Below are positions 31,060-64,000 of a stretch of DNA of 64,000 nt, one piece after another. The position numbers and the translations under genes were made by a program. The notes below the pieces were generated by a model. The model ran no database searches and was not told the DNA's origin. It saw only the letters and a list, made by a program, of their open reading frames with translations. Position 1 is the stretch's first letter; every line of letters begins with the position of its first letter. The stretch is from Escherichia phage MN04. The stretch lies in the sequence record MT129654.1. One strand, 5' to 3'.

Positions 31060-31064
31060 TTATA

Positions 31065-31088
31065 AGGAACCTTCGGGTTCCTTTTTTC
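31065..31088 (+). terminator. intrinsic terminator after soc
   Basis: AGGAACCTTCGGGTTCCT hairpin plus T6. Confidence 0.7.
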
Positions 31089-31097
31089 GTTTTAGTA

Positions 31098-31127
31098 GTT
31101 TACTTTACGAGTAGGCCATGTTAAGAT
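31098..31127 (+). promoter_or_regulatory. early promoter, PeSL-like (weaker -10)
   Basis: GTTTAC, 18 nt, TAAGAT. Confidence 0.4.
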
Positions 31128-39569: not shown

Positions 39570-39791
39570 ATGACTACTAAAATCACTGCAAACTCGACTC
39601 GTGAAGAATTTGAAGATGTTCTGTTCAACCCTGATTTAATCGTGGTTCAAAAGGAACATTCTGATACGTTTTCTCATTTATCGTCGGTTTATGTATACGA
39701 AAATCAAGGTGATAAAAACCCTATGTATGCAGTGTTCCGTGAAATCACTGCTGAAGGCACCGACTTCTGGAAGGAAACTTACAATGCTTAA
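39570..39791 (+). CDS. hypothetical protein (73 aa)
   Basis: AAGGAG SD before ATG 39570. Confidence 0.4.
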   Translation: MTTKITANSTREEFEDVLFNPDLIVVQKEHSDTFSHLSSVYVYENQGDKNPMYAVFREITAEGTDFWKETYNA

Positions 39792-40287
39792 TCAAGAACT
39801 TGAATTTGAAAAAGGTAAATGGTACTATTTTAAAGATGACGCGGCAGAAGCTGAATTCCGTAAGCTGAATTCCCATAATATTAGGACTCCTAATAATTCT
39901 TCTATAGCAGATATTATTGTCAATTCTGAAGGTTTTTGCCCTGTTAGATTAGCGGCAGGTTATGTGATGAACGTGGACTTGGCTTATGGTGATAACATTG
40001 ATATGGTTTTATATCCAAGCGAGCGTAAATTCTTTACGGAAATGGTTGTAGTTGACAGTGAAGACGAATGGGCCGAAGATGGTTTTTCTGAAGAAGACCG
40101 GTCTGAACCGAGTGATTTCCCTTTGACTAAAATCACTATGGAAATGGGTTTAGTTGGCGGTGAAGACCAGTCTGAAGACGCAGCCCCATATGAACCGAGT
40201 GATTTCCCTTTGACTAAAATCACTATCTCCAATAATTCTGAAGCCTGGACTGTTTACCGGATGTTGAAAGCCCACTTTAAGGAATAA
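39784..40287 (+). CDS. hypothetical acidic protein with internal 11-aa repeat (EPSDFPLTKIT x2)
   Basis: ORF; nucleotide direct repeat inside the CDS. Confidence 0.45.
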   Translation: MLNQELEFEKGKWYYFKDDAAEAEFRKLNSHNIRTPNNSSIADIIVNSEGFCPVRLAAGYVMNVDLAYGDNIDMVLYPSERKFFTEMVVVDSEDEWAEDGFSEEDRSEPSDFPLTKITMEMGLVGGEDQSEDAAPYEPSDFPLTKITISNNSEAWTVYRMLKAHFKE

Positions 40288-48659: not shown

Positions 48660-49004
48660 ATGTCTAAAGTATTTTTTGGTAATTCTAAAGTTATGTTCTT
48701 TGAGCAACTCAGTCTTAAAGAGGCATTGGCAGCCTTCAATCAAGAACTGGTTACTGGGTTAGATTCAAAAACTATGGCAAGTGCGGATTTCGTTTTCGTT
48801 CAAGACCCGGATACAGGGTTTTATCGATTCATCAAATTCCGTATGAGCATGGACCCTGACTATCGTAGTGCTTACTATGTGAGTTACGAAAATGTTATCG
48901 AAGAATTACGTGATACCTATGGACGTGCTTTGAACCCACTGAATAAGGTTTATAATGCGTCCTTTTATACGAGCGGATTTATTTTAGAACAGCTACAAAA
49001 ATAG
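48660..49004 (+). CDS. hypothetical protein (114 aa)
   Basis: TTGAGGAAAATATT-ATG TIR. Confidence 0.45.
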   Translation: MSKVFFGNSKVMFFEQLSLKEALAAFNQELVTGLDSKTMASADFVFVQDPDTGFYRFIKFRMSMDPDYRSAYYVSYENVIEELRDTYGRALNPLNKVYNASFYTSGFILEQLQK

Positions 49005-49032
49005 TTTACAACCTCGAGAATCATGTTATAAT
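49004..49032 (+). promoter_or_regulatory. early promoter, PeSL-like
   Basis: GTTTAC, 17 nt, TATAAT; flanking near-palindrome GAGAATCAT/ATGGTTCTC. Confidence 0.55.
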
Positions 49033-49081
49033 GGTTCTCGTTGACTGGATAACAAAACATTAATCTACTGAGGAAATTGAT

Positions 49082-49531
49082 ATGAATACTTATATGACTC
49101 GCGGTAACGTTCTGTCTGCTGGTGCTACTACTGTTGCTTATGTTAAGAATGGCGAATACCAAAATGGTAAGCCTTCTAAAGAAATCTCAGCCCAGCCAGG
49201 CTTCTACTTCTTTGTTAAAGGTGAAGCAGATTCTCGTGTCGTAGCCGCTCGCTTTTATGTCGGCAACCAACGTTCAGCTCAAGGTCTTGATGGTATTGTG
49301 GCTAACATTCGTAAGAAACGTTCGCAATCAGCTCGTACTATGGCTGTGAATGGTGTAGTGTATGAAGTTCTTTATGTACCTGCTTCTAAAATGAAACCAC
49401 TGACTACAGGTTTTGGTAAGGGTCAAATTGCAATGGCTTTCACTCGCAACCATAGTTCCGACCTTCAGACCCTGGAAGAAATGAACCGCATGTTGGCTGA
49501 TAACTTTAAATTCGTTCTGCAGGCTTACTAA
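49082..49531 (+). CDS. ndd: nucleoid disruption protein Ndd
   Basis: 149 aa; RFYVGNQRS...[17 protein letters not shown]...TRNH...[19 protein letters not shown] matches recalled T4 Ndd. Confidence 0.85.
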
Positions 49532-49608
49532 TGAGCAATTTCCATAACGAACATGTGATGCAGTTCTATCGTAACAATCTTAAAACTAAAGGCGTCTTCG
49601 GACGCTAA
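49531..49608 (+). CDS. stp: Stp peptide (anticodon-nuclease activator / restriction inhibitor)
   Basis: 25 codons, [25 protein letters not shown], essentially identical to the recalled 26-residue T4 Stp; start overlaps the ndd stop. Confidence 0.8.
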
Positions 49609-49618
49609 TGAGGAAAAT

Positions 49619-49780
49619 ATGATTATCCTAGTTTTTATTGAACTTATTATGGCTATGGTTTGTTCAGTTTGCTTCTTTTTAGGTGTATGGACCCCTGGTC
49701 CGGTATTCTTAAGTTTTCTGTTTATTGGCTGGGTTCTTTCTACTTTTGTCGGTTTACTTAAGACGATTAAAAATGATTAA
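49619..49780 (+). CDS. small membrane peptide (53 aa); Ac-like by size and position
   Basis: AGGAAAAT-ATG; hydrophobic core; sits between stp and 52 where T4 has ac. Confidence 0.35.
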   Translation: MIILVFIELIMAMVCSVCFFLGVWTPGPVFLSFLFIGWVLSTFVGLLKTIKND

Positions 49781-49917
49781 GAAAATCTTGGGCTACTCGG
49801 TAGCCCTTGCTGCTTTATTGGTAGCACTGTATTATGGAGTAATATTCGGTCTTATCCAAGTTGTGCTTTTTATTTCCGATGTTATTATGGTTATTCATTC
49901 ACTAGTATGGTAAAATT

Positions 49918-51297
49918 ATGGCTGATGTAATTGATACCCTTTTTAAACAATCCTTAGATGTTTACGATGATGCTTTTACTCGTCGTGACTTAAAAAGCAT
50001 TATCGACAATGAAGCGCTGGCTTATGCAATGTATACTGTCGAAAACCGCGCCATTCCAAATATGATTGATGGCTTTAAACCTGTACAACGTTTTGTAGTT
50101 GCTCGTTGTCTTGATATGGCTCGTGGTAATAAAGAAAAATTCCACAAACTAGCTTCTATTGCAGGTGGTGTAGCCGACCTTGGATATCACCACGGTGAAG
50201 GTTCTGCTCAAGAAGCAGGTGCTCTGATGGCTAACACATGGAACAACAACTTCCCACTGTTGGATGGCCAAGGCAACTTTGGTTCTCGATTAGTTCAAAA
50301 GGCTGCAGCCTCTCGTTATATTTTTGCACGAATTGGAACTAATTTCGCAAAGGTTTATAAGGATACAGAATATGCTCCGGTTCATGCGGATGTCGAACAT
50401 AAGCCACCAGCTTTTTATCTGCCTATTATTCCTACTGTTCTTCTTAATGGTATTTCCGGTATTGCGACTGGTTATGCAACTAATATTCTTCCTCATAGTT
50501 TTGATTCTGTTAAGAAAGCTGTATTGCAGGTTCTTCAAGAAAAACGCGTAACCAAGCCTAAGGTGGCTTATCCGGAATTCCGTGGCGATGTGGTTGAGAT
50601 TGAACCAGGTAGTTATGAACTACGAGGCACGTATAAGTTCACATCTCGAACCCAAATGCATATCACAGAAATCCCGTACAAATACGACCGTGAAACGTAC
50701 GTGGCCAAGGTACTGGACCCTTTAGAAGACAAAGGGTATATCACGTATGATGACGACTGTGACGAGAATGGTTTCGGCTTCAAGGTTAAGATTCGTAAAG
50801 AATATGAATTGCCTACTGAAGAAAATAAGAAGCATGAAAAAATCATGAAGGACTTCGGGTTAATCGAACGTCGTTCGCAAAACCTGACCGTCATTAATGA
50901 GAAAGGTAAACTTAAGGTTTACGAAGATGTAGTTGAACTGATTCGTGATTTCGTTGAGGTCCGTAAGACCTTTGTACAAAAACGTATTGATGGTAAAATC
51001 ATCGAAACCGAAGAAGCTTTCAAACTGGCATTGGCTAAAGCTACATTCATTAAAGATGTTATTGATGGTGTGGTGGTTATCCAAGGTAAGACCCGTAAAG
51101 TTTTAACCGAAGAATTGGCCAGCAATAAAGTCTACGGTGAATACGCTGATAAACTCGTAGCAATGAATATTTTCCATATCACGTCCGATGAAGCTAAGAA
51201 ACTGGCTTTGGAAGCCAAGGCTAAGAAAGAAGAGCACCAATACTGGAAAACCACTGATGTTGTAACTGAGTATGTTAAAGATTTGGAGGCTCTATGA
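49918..51297 (+). CDS. 52: DNA topoisomerase II medium subunit gp52 (GyrA-like)
   Basis: 459 aa; ENRAIPNMIDGFKPVQRF (GyrA-type segment). Confidence 0.9.
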   Translation: MADVIDTLFKQSLDVYDDAFTRRDLKSIIDNEALAYAMYTVENRAIPNMIDGFKPVQRFVVARCLDMARGNKEKFHKLASIAGGVADLGYHHGEGSAQEAGALMANTWNNNFPLLDGQGNFGSRLVQKAAASRYIFARIGTNFAKVYKDTEYAPVHADVEHKPPAFYLPIIPTVLLNGISGIATGYATNILPHSFDSVKKAVLQVLQEKRVTKPKVAYPEFRGDVVEIEPGSYELRGTYKFTSRTQMHITEIPYKYDRETYVAKVLDPLEDKGYITYDDDCDENGFGFKVKIRKEYELPTEENKKHEKIMKDFGLIERRSQNLTVINEKGKLKVYEDVVELIRDFVEVRKTFVQKRIDGKIIETEEAFKLALAKATFIKDVIDGVVVIQGKTRKVLTEELASNKVYGEYADKLVAMNIFHITSDEAKKLALEAKAKKEEHQYWKTTDVVTEYVKDLEAL

Positions 51298-51398
51298 GCC
51301 TTGGAGTCGAGTTCTTGTTACTCTGTATCTTTGCTGTTATCCTAGGCCTGGCGACAGGCTTAGCTATAGGTTTAATAGCAGCCCACTTTAAAAAGTAA
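51294..51398 (+). CDS. small hydrophobic peptide (34 aa)
   Basis: ATG overlapping the gene 52 stop; single predicted TM helix; followed by a terminator. Confidence 0.3.
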   Translation: MSLGVEFLLLCIFAVILGLATGLAIGLIAAHFKK

Positions 51399-51420
51399 GG
51401 AACCTTCGGGTTCCTTTTTG
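51398..51420 (+). terminator. intrinsic terminator after gene 52
   Basis: AGGAACCTTCGGGTTCCT hairpin plus T5 (same sequence as at 31065). Confidence 0.65.
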
Positions 51421-51438
51421 GGTTTAGTGCAAAAAAGT

Positions 51439-51467
51439 GTTTACATCTGCTTTAAACATGATACTAT
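51439..51467 (+). promoter_or_regulatory. early promoter, PeSL-like (duplicate copy 1)
   Basis: GTTTAC, 17 nt, TACTAT, then AGACCTATCAAATAAATGAACTGAAAC. Confidence 0.55.
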
Positions 51468-51515
51468 AGACCTATCAAATAAATGAACTGAAACAAACAA
51501 CCCGGAGATACAAAA

Positions 51516-51743
51516 ATGAAATTTAAAATCGAAAACGAAATCGTTAAAGCTAAAAATGCTCTGACTGCTAACAAACTGGTTGTAGATGGTATTGAATATG
51601 ATATCTGTGGAGTTCGTGAAGAAAAACCCGGTGTTCTGACTTTCTTCACAATGATTTTTAAATTTAAAGGTGACACAGAATTCAAACAGTTTGATTTTGC
51701 CCCTGAAGACGAAATCGAAGTTCGTAATCTGAACATTAAGTAA
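51516..51743 (+). CDS. hypothetical protein (75 aa), flanked by duplicated PeSL-like elements
   Basis: ORF with GGAG SD between two near-identical ~60-bp cassettes. Confidence 0.45.
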   Translation: MKFKIENEIVKAKNALTANKLVVDGIEYDICGVREEKPGVLTFFTMIFKFKGDTEFKQFDFAPEDEIEVRNLNIK

Positions 51744-51782
51744 GTACTTTATTAGAGCTCTTGAAAAAGAGCTCAAAATAAA

Positions 51783-51811
51783 GTTTACTTCTGCTTTAAA
51801 CATGATACTAT
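51783..51811 (+). promoter_or_regulatory. early promoter, PeSL-like (duplicate copy 2)
   Basis: Near-identical to the 51439 copy over about 60 bp. Confidence 0.55.
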
Positions 51812-51848
51812 AGACCTATCAAATAAATGAACTGAAACGGAGATTAAA

Positions 51849-52484
51849 ATGTCTAAAATTACTTATATCATCAAAGCTTCTGAAGACGCCCTGAATGAAA
51901 AAACCGCTTCAATCTTAGTACATATCATCAAGCATAACTTCATCACTTCAGGCGAAGTCCGTGAAGCCCTGAGTGAACAATTTAGTGCAGCGGTAGTTAA
52001 CTCTAACATTGGTGTATTGATTAAGAAAGGATTCATCGAAAAATCTGGTGATGGACTGGTGGCTACGGGTGAAGCAATGGACCTAGTTCAAAAAGCTGCT
52101 GACCTGTTCGCTTCTGAAAATGCTCCAGAGATGTTGGAAAAACGTAAAACTCGCAGTTCACGTGGTGTTACTCCTGAAATGGTAGTATTGGCTGGTGAAG
52201 TTAAATCTTTGTTAGAAGACCGAATCGAGATTCGTGAAATCGCTGAAAACCGTAGCAATCTTGAAGTTCGATTCGCTAAACGTACCAACGGTATTCGTCA
52301 AATCGAAGTCCGTCGTGACGGAATGATGCGTATCTTCGGTTATAATATGACCGATAAAGAAAAACAAGTGTTTACTTCCTTGAATCTTGATGTTAAGATT
52401 AAGACTGGTGGTAAGAATACTTATATCGACTTCCAAAACGTATCATCTGAAGTTATCAAAACCGTAACCAACGCAATTATCTGA
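51849..52484 (+). CDS. motA: middle-transcription activator MotA
   Basis: 211 aa; MSKITYIIKAS...NSNIGVLIKKGFIEKSGDGL matches recalled T4 MotA (also 211 aa). Confidence 0.85.
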   Translation: MSKITYIIKASEDALNEKTASILVHIIKHNFITSGEVREALSEQFSAAVVNSNIGVLIKKGFIEKSGDGLVATGEAMDLVQKAADLFASENAPEMLEKRKTRSSRGVTPEMVVLAGEVKSLLEDRIEIREIAENRSNLEVRFAKRTNGIRQIEVRRDGMMRIFGYNMTDKEKQVFTSLNLDVKIKTGGKNTYIDFQNVSSEVIKTVTNAII

Positions 52485-52498
52485 CTGAGGAAATTATT

Positions 52499-52828
52499 AT
52501 GAACAAGCTGAATATTGTTAATGAACTTCGTCGTTGTGCAGAACCTACTCAAGAAGGTTGGGATATTTGGTACCATGGCGCTTATCTCGGCACTATTGTT
52601 AAGATTAAAGCAGGTAAATACTTAATCATCCGTGGTGGTTCTGAAGCTTCTATGGGAATTCGTAAGAACTTTATGGCAGCCATCAGCACCTTTGTTCCAG
52701 CTGCTTATGAAGTCTATAAAGCCGACTACAAAGAATACCAGGAATCACAACCGGTTATTCGTTCAATTGGTGTTAATAAAGCTCAACAGAAAACTTTATG
52801 GCAACGTGTTAAAGGATGGTTCAAATGA
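52499..52828 (+). CDS. hypothetical protein (109 aa)
   Basis: CTGAGGAAATTATT-ATG TIR. Confidence 0.45.
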   Translation: MNKLNIVNELRRCAEPTQEGWDIWYHGAYLGTIVKIKAGKYLIIRGGSEASMGIRKNFMAAISTFVPAAYEVYKADYKEYQESQPVIRSIGVNKAQQKTLWQRVKGWFK

Positions 52829-53163
52829 TTCCGATGGAACTTAACTGGGACGGCGAAGGTCATTCCCTTAAATTGATTGAAGAACAGCGTAATGATTGGG
52901 ACGAGCGTGTAGCTTTAGTAAACGGTATTAAGAAAATTTACCAACTCAACCTTCATATTGACAATGTTCATCTTGAATTTGGTATGCAGTTATTGCGGTT
53001 TCTTGAGATTATTTTTATAGAAAAGGTAAACATAACTTCGCATGGTGCTGGCCAATCGGTTGTTATTAAATTATCATCCTATTATAAAGGTGATTTAATT
53101 GAAACAGCCACCAAAATTCAAGAATTTGCTAAAGATAACGGCCATAAGGTGATTTTCAAATGA
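52816..53163 (+). CDS. hypothetical protein (115 aa)
   Basis: ORF, overlapping start. Confidence 0.45.
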
Positions 53164-53648
53164 ATCCATTAAAAGGTAAAGAATTATCCTTTAAAGACCG
53201 TATGGCTTTATTAGATAAAGCTCTTTCTCGTGAAACACCTGAAAGCTTAGCAGCTAAATTACGAGCCTATGGTGATTACACTGAATATTCGGAAGAGGAT
53301 GTTTTGGAAGAGGTTCCTGAAATCTGTTGGCAGATTGCTCATTGGAACAACAATGAAAAATATCAGCGACGAATTGTGTGTGCAGCCAATCGCTTTAAGT
53401 TAAAAGACGGCGGGACTTTGGTTATTCCTGGCGCGCGTCATTATTCAAAAGATATGGCGGAAGTGCTTGACCAAGTAAGTGATAAACTTGTGTCAGAGCA
53501 TGTTTGCGGTGATGACCAAGGATTTATCGACCAATACTCAAATTATTGGACTCGCGAAGAAGCAATGATTATTGCAACATATGCTAATCAAGTTCGTATT
53601 GAACGTGGTGGTAGTGAAAAAGAACTTTACTCTGAGGACCTTTACTAA
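53160..53648 (+). CDS. hypothetical protein (162 aa)
   Basis: ORF, overlapping start. Confidence 0.45.
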
Positions 53649-53929
53649 TGAATCTTAAACAACTCCAGATTGATGCAATCGAAGCCCATATCAACCATAT
53701 TAAACGTCTGAATGTTATGGTGGAAGATAATTGGGGAACTTATGTCAACCAACCGGCTTGGGATGCATTAGATCATGAATATATAAAGAATATTAGTTCT
53801 AAGACAATTCATGGGAATATGGAAGGGTTGAAGCCGTTCCTACGTGATATGTATATTGCAACTAATAAAGAAATTATCAGTTCTCTTGAATATCAATTAA
53901 GGAAATTACGTGAACAATCTTGTAGCTAA
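53648..53929 (+). CDS. hypothetical protein (93 aa); Arn-like by size and position only
   Basis: ORF between motA and asiA where T4 has arn; no sequence confirmation. Confidence 0.3.
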   Translation: MNLKQLQIDAIEAHINHIKRLNVMVEDNWGTYVNQPAWDALDHEYIKNISSKTIHGNMEGLKPFLRDMYIATNKEIISSLEYQLRKLREQSCS

Positions 53930-54232
53930 GCACGATTTCAATAAGGCTTCGGTCCATAAGGACAAGAAGAAAAATTTTAAAGAGTCCAAGCGTAAGCAGA
54001 AACATAAGGGTAAAGGGTATGAGTCATAACTTAGAGAATACCGTAACAGGTATGCGTACGCGTGAGCAGGAGTGCTTTGAGGAATTCCTAGGAGCTGATT
54101 TTAAGTTCCAGGAACCTATTGAAGAAATGTATCAGGAATATGTTAAAAAGAACGAAGAACATGTTTACAATCCATAAGGATATGTTATTATAGCCTTATC
54201 AGATAATGTCGTACTGAATTGAAGAGAATATT

Positions 54233-54508
54233 ATGACTAAAATTGAAATCGTTTCCGAAATTGCTACTATTGTTTCCATTTTGATTAAAACGGATTGTGA
54301 AGACATCATGCAACGCCGTGATGAGTTTATTGCCTTTTTGAATGAGTTGGGTATTCGTAATGAACATGGAAAGGAACTTAACGGTCTATCTTTTAATAAA
54401 CTCTTTAAGTCTTTAACTGAAGATGAACGTGATACTCTTATTGAGCAATTTAATGAAGGGTATGAAGATATACACCGTTATCTAATGATGTATACCTCCA
54501 ATTTTTAA
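54233..54508 (+). CDS. asiA: anti-sigma70 factor AsiA
   Basis: 91 aa; IVSILIK...FIAFLNELGI...LIEQFNEGYEDIHRYLMMYT matches recalled T4 AsiA. Confidence 0.8.
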   Translation: MTKIEIVSEIATIVSILIKTDCEDIMQRRDEFIAFLNELGIRNEHGKELNGLSFNKLFKSLTEDERDTLIEQFNEGYEDIHRYLMMYTSNF

Positions 54509-61186: not shown

Positions 61187-64000
61187 TTATTCAATCCACT
61201 CAAATTTAACGGATTTAGTGACCGGGTCAGGAATAATGCGAACGTTACCAATACGTAACCAATCAAGGATTGTAATGTTACCCATTGTAGCGTTATCAGC
61301 AGGCAATGCACCAACCTCTTCCGCAGAAGGAGGGTTATCTGCGGTATAGACCATAGAGAACGTAGTCCATGCGTTTTTATTTTTCTGCCAGGTGCGAGTA
61401 TAACGAATAGTACCACCATTCAATCCTGTAGGATAGCACACCCAATCCTGATAACATGAATCCAATGTATTACCAAACTGTGTTAACGTACCAGGATATT
61501 TAACTTCCTTATCACGAACAGAATAATCAAACCAAGTACCACGTAATTTCTGACCTGATGTACCGAGAACTTCGTCACCAAAACTACCGTCTTCGTTACG
61601 ATAACGAATAGCCGGGGAACTAAATGCACCCGTTTCTGTCAACCAACCAGAAGCATTCCATATCTCATCAGAAACACCTGCAGGTTTAGTTTGGACCGTA
61701 TCGATATTAACCTGACGTTTAGTTTTCATCGTCCAATAACCTGGGAACAGGTTAAATGTAGCCGAATCATTGATATCGACAGACCAGAAGCCAACTGTTT
61801 CTGCAGTAGGGGCCTGGGATGCTAATGTAGGTTTAACACCAACAGAGCGGACGTATTTTTGAGCAACCAAACCATTGTTTGCCGATACTTGCCCTGTAGA
61901 AACGATAGTACCTGAAGTAGTTACGTTTTGCAATGAAGACAGAGCAGAAGCATTTAGTGTGGTTGTAGAAACACCGTTAGAAGTGGTTATACCTGTGATA
62001 TTAGCATTCTTAGAAATACTAATGGAACCACTATTAACAGCAAAGTCACCAGTCGTATTAAAGGTCCAGTAGGAAGATTCTAAAGAACCCGGCGATGGAA
62101 GATAATGTATTTTAAAATCACGAGTTCCATCGTTTACAGTGCCTAAAGAGAATGTACCTTGCCCTAAACGTTGTTTAACAATAGGATGGAACTTGGCATC
62201 CGGGGTCGAATTTATCTCGGCAAAAATCGGAGCTAAAGTATCGCCTTGAGAGTTCCAAGTACCGGCACCTGACTGTGGTCCTACAAATTTAATAGATTTA
62301 CCTGAGCTAACAGATACATCATTTTTAAAAGTAGAATTCCCGGTTACTTCCAGAGAACCTAAAATAGTGTTGCCGGTAATATTAGCAGTACTAGAAGACA
62401 CCAGAGGAGCCGCCAGGTTCAATTGTTTGGTCAGGATTAAAGAACCATTAACCGTTTGGTCGACGTCTCTACGAATGAACTGAAGTGAATCCAGACCATC
62501 CAATTTCTCGGAGTTCACAGCCGTAGCATTTATAGGTAAAAAGTTCTGTAAAGTTTTATTCATCTCGTAAGATGAAACCGCATAACCTGTTTTAGGATAG
62601 TTGGCTGCATTCAGAACAGTATCGTCGTTCTCATAAAGGCCTGTACCTGAGTTAAATTTAACACCAGAACCGGTAACTTTATTTCCTGAGTAAGTCAAAG
62701 CACCTTCGGTCAATTTAACAAATCCACGACGAAGTGCAGTAGCTTCCCAAGTGGTTTCGGACTGTACTACATATTTTAAACCAGAAGGGCTTACAGCCAG
62801 AACTTTAGAAGTTCCTGCAGTGGTTTCGGTATTCGTTGCAACACGAATAATACCTTCAGAACTTTCAGTAGATTTTTTAGAGTGTAATTTCAAAGGAGTG
62901 ATGATGGTTTTGTCATCAGTGCCAACATTGACTTCGGTCTGGGTAGCCAGACGAGCGGTACCACGTTGGGTCTCATTTGCTTCTCTAATATCTAGTGTAT
63001 AATGGTTCCATAAGGTTCCTGATTCAATCAAACCGCTGGCTGCTGAGACAGAAGTTCTAGCAGTATCATTAAGTCTTGTTTTAATTTTCAACGGAGTTGA
63101 AATAACATTATCTAACGTACCAGCATCAAATTCTGCTTGGGTTGCAATTCTAGCAATACCAGTCAATCCTTCCGTAGCTTTCCTGTCATTTAACGTTTTA
63201 GGCGTTACCGCACGAGTATAATCTGTTCCAGTATCGGTCTCTACTTGCGTAGCAATTTCAATTAACCCTGTACGAGTATCAAGAGCCACACGGGCATGCA
63301 ACGTTTCAGGAGAAACCGCACTGTTAGCAAATCCGCTAGCAGACTGTCCAGTATTAACTTCTGACTGGGTAGAAAGATATACTGTACCTTGTTGGGCTTG
63401 AGTAGCTTTATATTGGTCAAGTGCTTTAGGAGAAATAACCAAATTGCCTACGTTCTTATTATAAACGTTAGTACCTACAGTGTCCCTAGCAGTCGCAGGA
63501 GTGGTGTCCACCGTAGAGGTATATTTTACAATACCTGAAAGACTTTCAGTGCCCTGGCGCGTCTGTAGCTTCTTAGGAGTAATAATGGTGGTATCGTCAA
63601 CACCAGCATCAGTTTCCTGTTGCGTAGCAATTTCAGCTACACCACGACGAGTTTCGGTTGCAGTACGTTCGTTTAATTTCTTAGGAGAAATAATCAAATC
63701 GTCCTGGAATGCGAAGGTTGTGTCCTGGTTCACCTGAGCAGTAGTAGCAATACGAGCAATACCACGACGAGTTTCAGTGGCAACACGATTGGCTAAAGTC
63801 TGCGGAGTAATTGCAAGTTCTTTTTCAGGATTATTTTCATGGTCGACGTTTGCCTGGGTCTGAGACGCAAGGGCAATAACACCTAGACGAGCACGAGTTA
63901 AATCATCCTTAGAATCAACACGTTCTACCGTAGGAACGTTCTGAGCAACAACCCAATATTTACCACCTGTAGTGGTGTCTTCGATATAACTCAGTTCAAT
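61187..64000 (-). CDS. 34: long tail fibre proximal subunit gp34 (partial; N-terminus beyond the window)
   Basis: C-terminus GTLTQFGNTLDS..YQDW..YPT...ALP.DNATMGN.TI.D.LRIGNVRI.PDPV.K.VKFEW.E and internal PKKLNERTATETRRGVAEIATQQET repeats match recalled T4 gp34; the frame is still open at the window edge. Confidence 0.85.
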   Translation of the reverse strand: MELSYIEDTTTGGKYWVVAQNVPTVERVDSKDDLTRARLGVIALASQTQANVDHENNPEKELAITPQTLANRVATETRRGIARIATTAQVNQDTTFAFQDDLIISPKKLNERTATETRRGVAEIATQQETDAGVDDTTIITPKKLQTRQGTESLSGIVKYTSTVDTTPATARDTVGTNVYNKNVGNLVISPKALDQYKATQAQQGTVYLSTQSEVNTGQSASGFANSAVSPETLHARVALDTRTGLIEIATQVETDTGTDYTRAVTPKTLNDRKATEGLTGIARIATQAEFDAGTLDNVISTPLKIKTRLNDTARTSVSAASGLIESGTLWNHYTLDIREANETQRGTARLATQTEVNVGTDDKTIITPLKLHSKKSTESSEGIIRVATNTETTAGTSKVLAVSPSGLKYVVQSETTWEATALRRGFVKLTEGALTYSGNKVTGSGVKFNSGTGLYENDDTVLNAANYPKTGYAVSSYEMNKTLQNFLPINATAVNSEKLDGLDSLQFIRRDVDQTVNGSLILTKQLNLAAPLVSSSTANITGNTILGSLEVTGNSTFKNDVSVSSGKSIKFVGPQSGAGTWNSQGDTLAPIFAEINSTPDAKFHPIVKQRLGQGTFSLGTVNDGTRDFKIHYLPSPGSLESSYWTFNTTGDFAVNSGSISISKNANITGITTSNGVSTTTLNASALSSLQNVTTSGTIVSTGQVSANNGLVAQKYVRSVGVKPTLASQAPTAETVGFWSVDINDSATFNLFPGYWTMKTKRQVNIDTVQTKPAGVSDEIWNASGWLTETGAFSSPAIRYRNEDGSFGDEVLGTSGQKLRGTWFDYSVRDKEVKYPGTLTQFGNTLDSCYQDWVCYPTGLNGGTIRYTRTWQKNKNAWTTFSMVYTADNPPSAEEVGALPADNATMGNITILDWLRIGNVRIIPDPVTKSVKFEWIE

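Follow-up and report, generated by a model that had tools for sequence, protein, structure and literature searches.

A putative PeSL-bounded single-gene cassette between gene 52 and motA in a JS10-like Dhakavirus

The junction between gene 52 and motA in Escherichia phage MN04, a JS10-like Dhakavirus, very probably carries a single-gene ORFan cassette enclosed by two elements of the PeSL (promoter-early stem-loop) type, each composed of one copy of a direct repeat and a stem-loop. We analysed a window of 64,000 nucleotides of this phage (MT129654.1). Escherichia phage JS10 (Dhakavirus, Tevenvirinae) matches the region at 98.2% identity and has the same arrangement. The reading that we hold with high confidence is PeSL-mediated modular shuffling, with the general recombination system as the agent. 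General recombination would cross over at the promoter copies and at the -10/+1 and SD/ATG motifs, which are conserved. If the two direct repeats recombined with each other, a 344-bp unit would be deleted, perhaps in the form of a small circle, and the reverse reaction, or a double crossover in co-infection, would insert or replace a cassette. The 344-bp unit could also move between loci and between genera. Because each cassette ends in its own promoter copy, motA would keep an early promoter after a cassette is gained or lost. What we infer from these comparisons is the activity of promoters and terminators, the role of homologous recombination, any circular intermediate and the direction that each event took.

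All features of the junction lie on the + strand. The conserved upstream flank is gene 52, encoding the medium subunit of topoisomerase II (49918..51297; Pfam DNA_topoisoIV, 1.8e-74), whose JS10 counterpart is annotated as gp52 and has 98.2% nucleotide identity. A hydrophobic ORF of 34 aa (51294..51398; phrog_16377 at 2.3e-21) overlaps the gene 52 stop codon; it is an annotated CDS in CLB_P2, KIT01 and UP19 and has the same position as T4 motA.1. A terminator scan identified the left PeSL stem-loop, SL1 (51397..51421), in which a GGAACC-UUCG-GGUUCC hairpin (51397-51416) is followed by a T-run. SL1 looks like an intrinsic terminator, and its predicted fold of -11.4 kcal/mol is modest compared with shuffled sequences (z = -1.8). 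Repeat copy 1 (51430-51494) contains an A-rich UP region, a -35 GTTTAC (51439-51444), a 17-nt spacer and a TG-extended -10 TACTAT (51462-51467), and it continues for about 20 nt of 5'UTR past a predicted transcription start near 51474. An ORF-A-specific 5'UTR with a GGAG Shine-Dalgarno sequence (51495..51515), which is the same in Tequatrovirus ACG-C40 except for one extra A, leads to the cassette payload, ORF-A (51516..51743; phrog_10955). The initial annotation had placed an ATG-initiated ORF of 75 aa with these ends between the copies, and the ORF list bears this out.

The right PeSL stem-loop, SL2 (51746..51784), is an extended hairpin with the core GAGCUCUU-GAAA-AAGAGCUC, whose 3' arm reaches into the UP region of the second promoter. 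Its predicted fold of -17.7 kcal/mol (z = -6.4) was equalled in stability by none of 200 shuffles. SL2 has no T-run, so its function as a terminator is doubtful and it may not stop transcription. An identical SL2 stands behind the unrelated ORF-B in JS98, CLB_P2 and IME08. Repeat copy 2 (51774-51838; -35 at 51783-51788, -10 at 51806-51811) is the early promoter and 5'UTR of motA. The conserved downstream flank is motA itself, the activator of middle transcription (51849..52484; MotA_activ 2.2e-38 and MotCF 1.8e-13). GGAG serves as the Shine-Dalgarno sequence of both ORF-A (51504-51507) and motA (51839-51842). The T4 endoribonuclease RegB cleaves the GGAG motif in early mRNAs, including that of motA; therefore, the cassette may share the post-transcriptional shut-off of motA. 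Elsewhere in the window, the SL1 sequence (TAAGGAACCTTCGGGTTCCTTTTT) occurs again at 31063-31092 with 93% identity and with an early promoter behind it (GTTTAC at 31098). The segment 31063-31130 looks like a second PeSL with an SL1-type stem-loop, a possible recombination partner about 20 kb away.

A repeat search defined the direct repeat as 65 nt, 51430-51494 and 51774-51838, with 61 of the 65 positions identical (94%) and a start-to-start period of 344 nt. The initial annotation had reported near-identical segments at 51437-51500 and 51782-51845. The duplication is real, and these coordinates are a few bases off, since they imply an offset of 345 nt and the actual one is 344. The two copies share an exact run of 49 nt (51446-51494 = 51790-51838), and past 51494 and 51838 the likeness ends (AAACAACCC... 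versus GGAGATTAA...). When up to 3 mismatches were allowed, the 49-nt run occurred twice in the 64-kb window, and 0 occurrences were expected from 100 shuffles. As part of the same joint reading, and with the same high confidence, we regard the copies as probable duplicates of one T4-type early promoter together with the start of its 5'UTR.

Early promoters of the T4 type have a strong consensus, and the likeness might come from this consensus, in which case the two promoters would be independent, with no recent common origin, and would have no role in rearrangement. About 18 early-promoter-like sites were found in the window, all on the + strand, and the core CATGATACTATAGACCTATCAA is common to several of them (26593, 27550, 34301), which agrees with such an explanation. 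However, the identity of the repeat pair extends to the non-consensus spacer and to about 20 nt of transcribed UTR, and the pair stands well apart from the other 152 promoter pairs. It is 89% identical over 71 aligned nt, compared with a mean of 43% (sd 10%) and a next-best value of 70% among the 18 sites, and its longest exact run is 49 nt versus 24 nt for the next-best pair. Independent promoters are also at odds with the indel and replacement breakpoints in relatives, which coincide with these elements, and with the match of KIT01 to a simulated deletion junction (both described below). We consider this explanation very unlikely.

Two other repeats were seen in the window. A 50-nt direct repeat (40090-40139 and 40177-40226; 88% identity, 87-nt spacing) lies in an ORF of 198 aa (39691-40287); a relation to the cassette was rejected, as it is an in-frame intragenic duplication of about 29 codons. 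At 63249-63811, a 68-nt unit occurs three times with 63-74% identity and spacings of 375 and 120 nt, which probably reflects a protein motif repeated within a gene close to the window end.

For PeSLs of the T4/PST type, the promoter consensus is TTTACW-N17-TAYWAT (PMC4122927). Both repeat copies fit it, with GTTTACA or GTTTACT, a 17-nt spacer and TACTAT. The A-rich stretch found upstream of T4/PST PeSL promoters is present as CAAAAAAGT (51430-51438) in copy 1 and as CAAAATAAA (51774-51782) in copy 2. A stem-loop stands just upstream of each promoter, SL1 before copy 1 and SL2 before copy 2, and a Shine-Dalgarno sequence with a start codon lies 3' of each, GGAGATAC-AAAA-ATG for ORF-A and GGAGATTAAA-ATG for motA. 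With promoter, A-rich stretch, stem-loop and SD/ATG in place, both elements thus have all the sequence features of a PeSL. Like PeSLs, they are also intergenic, flank an ORFan and coincide with indels or replacements in close relatives, as seen in five junction states. The ORFs found at this site, ORF-A, ORF-B and ORF-C, each belong to a PHROG of unknown function.

The spacers of both promoters, directly 5' of motA in the second case, contain TGCTTTA, the core of the MotA box (51448-51454 and 51792-51798). Middle promoters that depend on MotA have a mot box, TGCTTtA, 11-13 bp upstream of the -10 and have no -35. We considered a middle-promoter (PmSL) reading and rejected it, because the motif stands 7 nt from the -10, not 11-13, and is missing from the native motA promoter of T4; a -35 GTTTAC is also present here. 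Similar CTGCTTTAA spacers are found ahead of ORF-A homologs in Moonvirus and Karamvirus.

The initial annotation had suggested comparing the gene 52-motA junction among related phages, and had named as the contrary case that all relatives are alike with diverged flanks. We compared the 52-motA interval from a sample of 16 relatives; one of these, CUA3, which is N-masked across the cassette, was left out, and BLAST counts of relatives include duplicate RefSeq and GenBank records. The relatives are not alike, and presence of the ORF varies among them. Five states were found in the sampled Dhakavirus genomes, and the breakpoints between them fall within the promoter/UTR elements. The site is empty in NC-G and KIT01, which have SL1, a single promoter and motA; repeat copy 2, the motA promoter, is the sole promoter copy there. 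ORF-A is present in JS10, UP19, IME281 and Esco_phi_B-01 in the arrangement of the window. In JS98 and CLB_P2, the same SL1 plus promoter and SL2 plus promoter enclose an unrelated ORF of 71 aa, ORF-B (phrog_6200), and IME341 and 04086 carry a third ORF, ORF-C, of 73 aa (phrog_13302). IME08 carries a tandem of ORF-B and ORF-C and has three promoter copies. In Tequatrovirus, T4 has an empty site with its own, different motA promoter, and ACG-C40 has ORF-A within an inter-genus island.

Some irregularities were noticed in the records of these relatives. In CUA3 (PP410321.1; L008, 1680-2035), Ns cover the ORF-A cassette and a variable UTR segment at a length equal to that of JS10. This suggests that a phage without ORF-A, or with another cassette, was assembled with JS10 as the reference. 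We did not accept CUA3 as a further junction type, because the masking covers exactly the ORF-A cassette and makes the record unusable. In IME08 (HM071924.1; L004, 2230-3159), ORF-C is unannotated and the motA start is annotated 75 nt upstream of the conserved ATGTCTAAA (708 versus 633 nt), probably an annotation error due to the extra cassette. Gene 52 of 04086 (OR842557.1; L011, 180-1782) is split into three annotated CDS, and the alignment of the region falls into 5 pieces; the topoisomerase gene may contain frameshifts or an insertion.

These states bear on how the cassette moves. Exchange might occur by double-crossover replacement between co-infecting phages only, at whatever homology the flanks offer and with no intramolecular excision or circle integration, and the duplicated promoter would then be baggage of the imported unit. 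The swap of ORF-A for ORF-B between identical left (SL1 plus promoter) and right (SL2 plus promoter) elements is most simply a double crossover. The equal closeness of the JS98 and JS10 flanks to the window also fits, as does the right edge of the Tequatrovirus island, which lies in the motA start codon region outside the repeat. However, presence and absence states differ by exactly one repeat period, and the empty site of KIT01 retains AACTGAAAC, as a repeat-by-repeat intramolecular deletion would leave. The tandem cassettes of IME08 with three promoter copies also argue against replacement only. Furthermore, experiments in RB49 and phi1 have shown circles that form between adjacent PeSLs (Arbiol et al. 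2010, PMC2839356). Replacement only is a possible route, to which we give clearly less than an even chance.

Traces of recombination are visible in the elements themselves. The repeat has no fixed 3' limit, even among phages that hardly differ otherwise. The window, JS10 and UP19 have an exact run of 49 nt, IME281 and Esco_phi_B-01 one of 40 nt, and ACG-C40 one of 23 nt. In IME281 and Esco_phi_B-01, the right copy finishes in the native motA UTR (...AAATAAATG|GTTATC). At the empty site of KIT01, the UTR segment AACTGAAAC is of the cassette type and GTTTACATCTGC is the variant of the left copy. When one period was deleted from the window in silico, the resulting junction matched KIT01 at 135 of 137 comparable positions, and the differences were homopolymer lengths and an SD variant. 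Instead of resulting from a deletion, the KIT01 site could represent the ancestral state. In ACG-C40, the right-hand element is chimeric: the 5' half of SL2 is joined to TGCAAAAAAGTGTTTAC, which belongs to the UP region of the left copy in the window.

Cassette and flanks also have different histories, to judge from the alignments, in that the cassette state is incongruent with flank similarity. JS98, which is in the ORF-B state, has flanks 98.1% (gene 52) and 98.3% (motA) identical to the window, as close as those of JS10 in the ORF-A state. The corresponding values are 93.8% and 96.9% for UP19, which has ORF-A, and 92.1% and 94.9% for KIT01, which is empty. Among the ORF-A-bearing Dhakaviruses, the 344-nt unit has 0-2 mismatches, compared with 1.9-5.3% difference in the flanks (Fisher p = 0.004 to 1e-5). 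The initial annotation had interpreted the arrangement as that expected of a one-gene module inserted or duplicated by recombination between PeSL copies, or poised for excision. The junction states, the KIT01 junction, the incongruence with the flanks and the conservation of the cassette support this interpretation.

ORF-A homologs in other genera and loci are 58-82% identical, with 42 invariant alignment columns. Those of 58-71% identity occupy several contexts. In Moonvirus NM4.3, the homolog lies between 52 and motA; in Jiaodavirus K65PH164, it adjoins the tRNA cluster; in Gelderlandvirus Melville, it follows a nucleotidyltransferase gene; and in Karamvirus RZH, it has a similar, unannotated gene context. 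Each of these homologs has a GTTTAC-type promoter upstream and a second one immediately past the stop codon. NM4.3 and RZH have nearly the same promoter and UTR despite their different loci. Mosigvirus LH01 has an ORF-B homolog between 52 and motA and an ORF-C homolog in the internal-protein/tRNA region. The structure model of ORF-A, a confident one, predicts an SH3-like barrel.

The geometry of a direct repeat is by itself compatible with a simpler history, in which the motA promoter region was locally duplicated in tandem in one lineage and inherited vertically, with an ORF that is non-functional or arose de novo. However, the homologs in other genera and loci, their 42 invariant columns and the confident fold do not agree with such an origin of the ORF, and neither the incongruence between cassette state and flanks nor the near-identity of the cassette across genera agrees with vertical inheritance. 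We regard this history as extremely unlikely.

A dedicated enzyme, such as a homing endonuclease or a site-specific recombinase, might move the cassette instead of general recombination, and it might be encoded in trans elsewhere. Phages of the T4 type are rich in homing genes of the seg, mob and HNH kinds, and these promote localized gene conversion. However, no nuclease or recombinase domain was found in ORF-A, ORF-B or ORF-C (71-75 aa), and the ORF-A model is an SH3-like barrel. ORF-A had no nuclease match in Pfam, NCBIfam or PHROG and so lacks the mark of a homing endonuclease or a mobile intron, and we rejected such an enzyme as the payload. The ORFs scanned at 49000-54500 matched only the Ndd, topoisomerase and MotA families. 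A dedicated enzyme is therefore an improbable agent.

PeSL-mediated shuffling by general recombination, which remains our preferred reading, may also have acted across a genus boundary. A segment of 386 nt on the + strand (51472..51857) is about 98% identical to Tequatrovirus ACG-C40, with 7 mismatches and 1 indel, whereas the ACG-C40 flanks are only 60-76% identical to the window, with 76% for gene 52 and 65% for motA (island versus flanks, Fisher p = 1.5e-32). According to published values, the T4 and JS98 groups share an ANI of 67-72%. The left end of this inter-genus exchange island, CTATCAA, is at about the predicted +1 of the ORF-A mRNA, and the right end is ATGTCTAAA of motA. In ACG-C40, the left promoter is the native T4 motA promoter, and motA is, as far as the sequence tells, driven by a Dhakavirus-type promoter and UTR. 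Transfer from Dhakavirus to Tequatrovirus appears to be the favoured direction, because the right promoter of ACG-C40 is the one native at empty Dhakavirus sites and that of T4 differs. BLAST returned about 130 phage records with the ACG-C40 pattern, in which the match starts at the left -10 box; taxonomy was checked for ACG-C40 only, and the Tequatrovirus status of the rest is taken from their names and the shared breakpoint. If these records all share the structure of ACG-C40, motA there would be driven by a Dhakavirus-type promoter and UTR that were imported alongside the ORFan.

At the inter-genus crossovers, shared sequence amounts to 7-10 nt only (CTATCAA and ATGTCTAAA). The authors of the PeSL model cite homology patches of about 50 bp for T4 recombination. 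Since 7-10 nt is far below this length, at least the inter-genus events may depend on microhomology or on illegitimate recombination, not on homologous recombination of the classical kind. We tentatively raise the idea, itself rather doubtful, that the mobile unit is a whole early transcription unit plus the promoter and 5'UTR of the next gene, from about the +1 of the ORF-A mRNA to the motA ATG, and that it crosses between Dhakavirus and Tequatrovirus via 7-10 nt crossovers. If this is true, the early-promoter architecture would be a docking site throughout the subfamily, with gene flow across ANI discontinuities and with rewiring of core-gene regulation as a side effect.

The elements resemble several known systems. 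As in the PeSLs of RB49 and phi1 (PMC2839356), a stem-loop, an AT-rich stretch, an early promoter, a Shine-Dalgarno sequence and ATG surround single ORFans, which are present or absent in close relatives, and a single element remains at an empty site. In contrast, RB49 and phi1 have near-perfect sigma-70 promoters (TTGACA/TATAAT) instead of the T4 GTTTAC type, and their stems are G-run/C-run stems that often lie inside the promoter, whereas the stems here are upstream and have other sequences. Circles are an experimental result there, and the present case is known from sequence alone. The PeSLs of T4 and PST (Comeau, Arbiol & Krisch 2014, PMC4122927) are similar in that their consensus is matched exactly here, the stem-loop immediately precedes the promoter and ORF exchanges are tied to the elements, e.g., ndd.4/.5 versus ORF268/269. 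Unlike that case, the junction presents a multi-state series at one site and an inter-genus exchange at about 70% ANI. At the internal-protein (IP) locus of T-even phages, repeats based on early promoters shuffle small genes (Repoila et al. 1994, as discussed in PMC2839356 and PMC4122927). There too, early-promoter repeats with AT-rich stem-loops bound alternative small genes, and the Mosigvirus ORF-C homolog is in that region, although the locus and the payloads are different. Integron gene cassettes are comparable by analogy only: single-gene modules enter, leave and change order at one fixed site via small circles. Integrons, however, need an integrase and attC/attI and their cassettes are usually promoterless, whereas here each cassette has a promoter, no recombinase was found and exchange is apparently homology-driven.

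A literature search on JS10, JS98 and motA returned nothing on the gene 52-motA junction. In the two PeSL papers (PMC2839356 and PMC4122927), motA, JS10 and IME08 are unmentioned and JS98 appears once, for the gene 43 region only; PMC4122927 names none of the four. The mechanism of PeSL shuffling is already described, and the gene 52-motA cassette is a clear new example of it, not a new mechanism or a new kind of element. The PeSL model has been based mainly on three pairwise genome comparisons and on inverse PCR in RB49 and phi1. The junction offers a clean natural series for this model, consisting of the empty site, ORF-A, ORF-B, ORF-C, ORF-B plus ORF-C and the inter-genus copy. A 344-bp unit with a 49-nt exact repeat beside the easily scored motA is also a convenient system for excision and integration rates and for homology requirements. 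The exchange between genera and the replaced motA promoter add to the interest of this cassette. In summary, the PeSL mechanism appears to ferry ORFans over genus boundaries, and it can replace the promoter of a core regulator.
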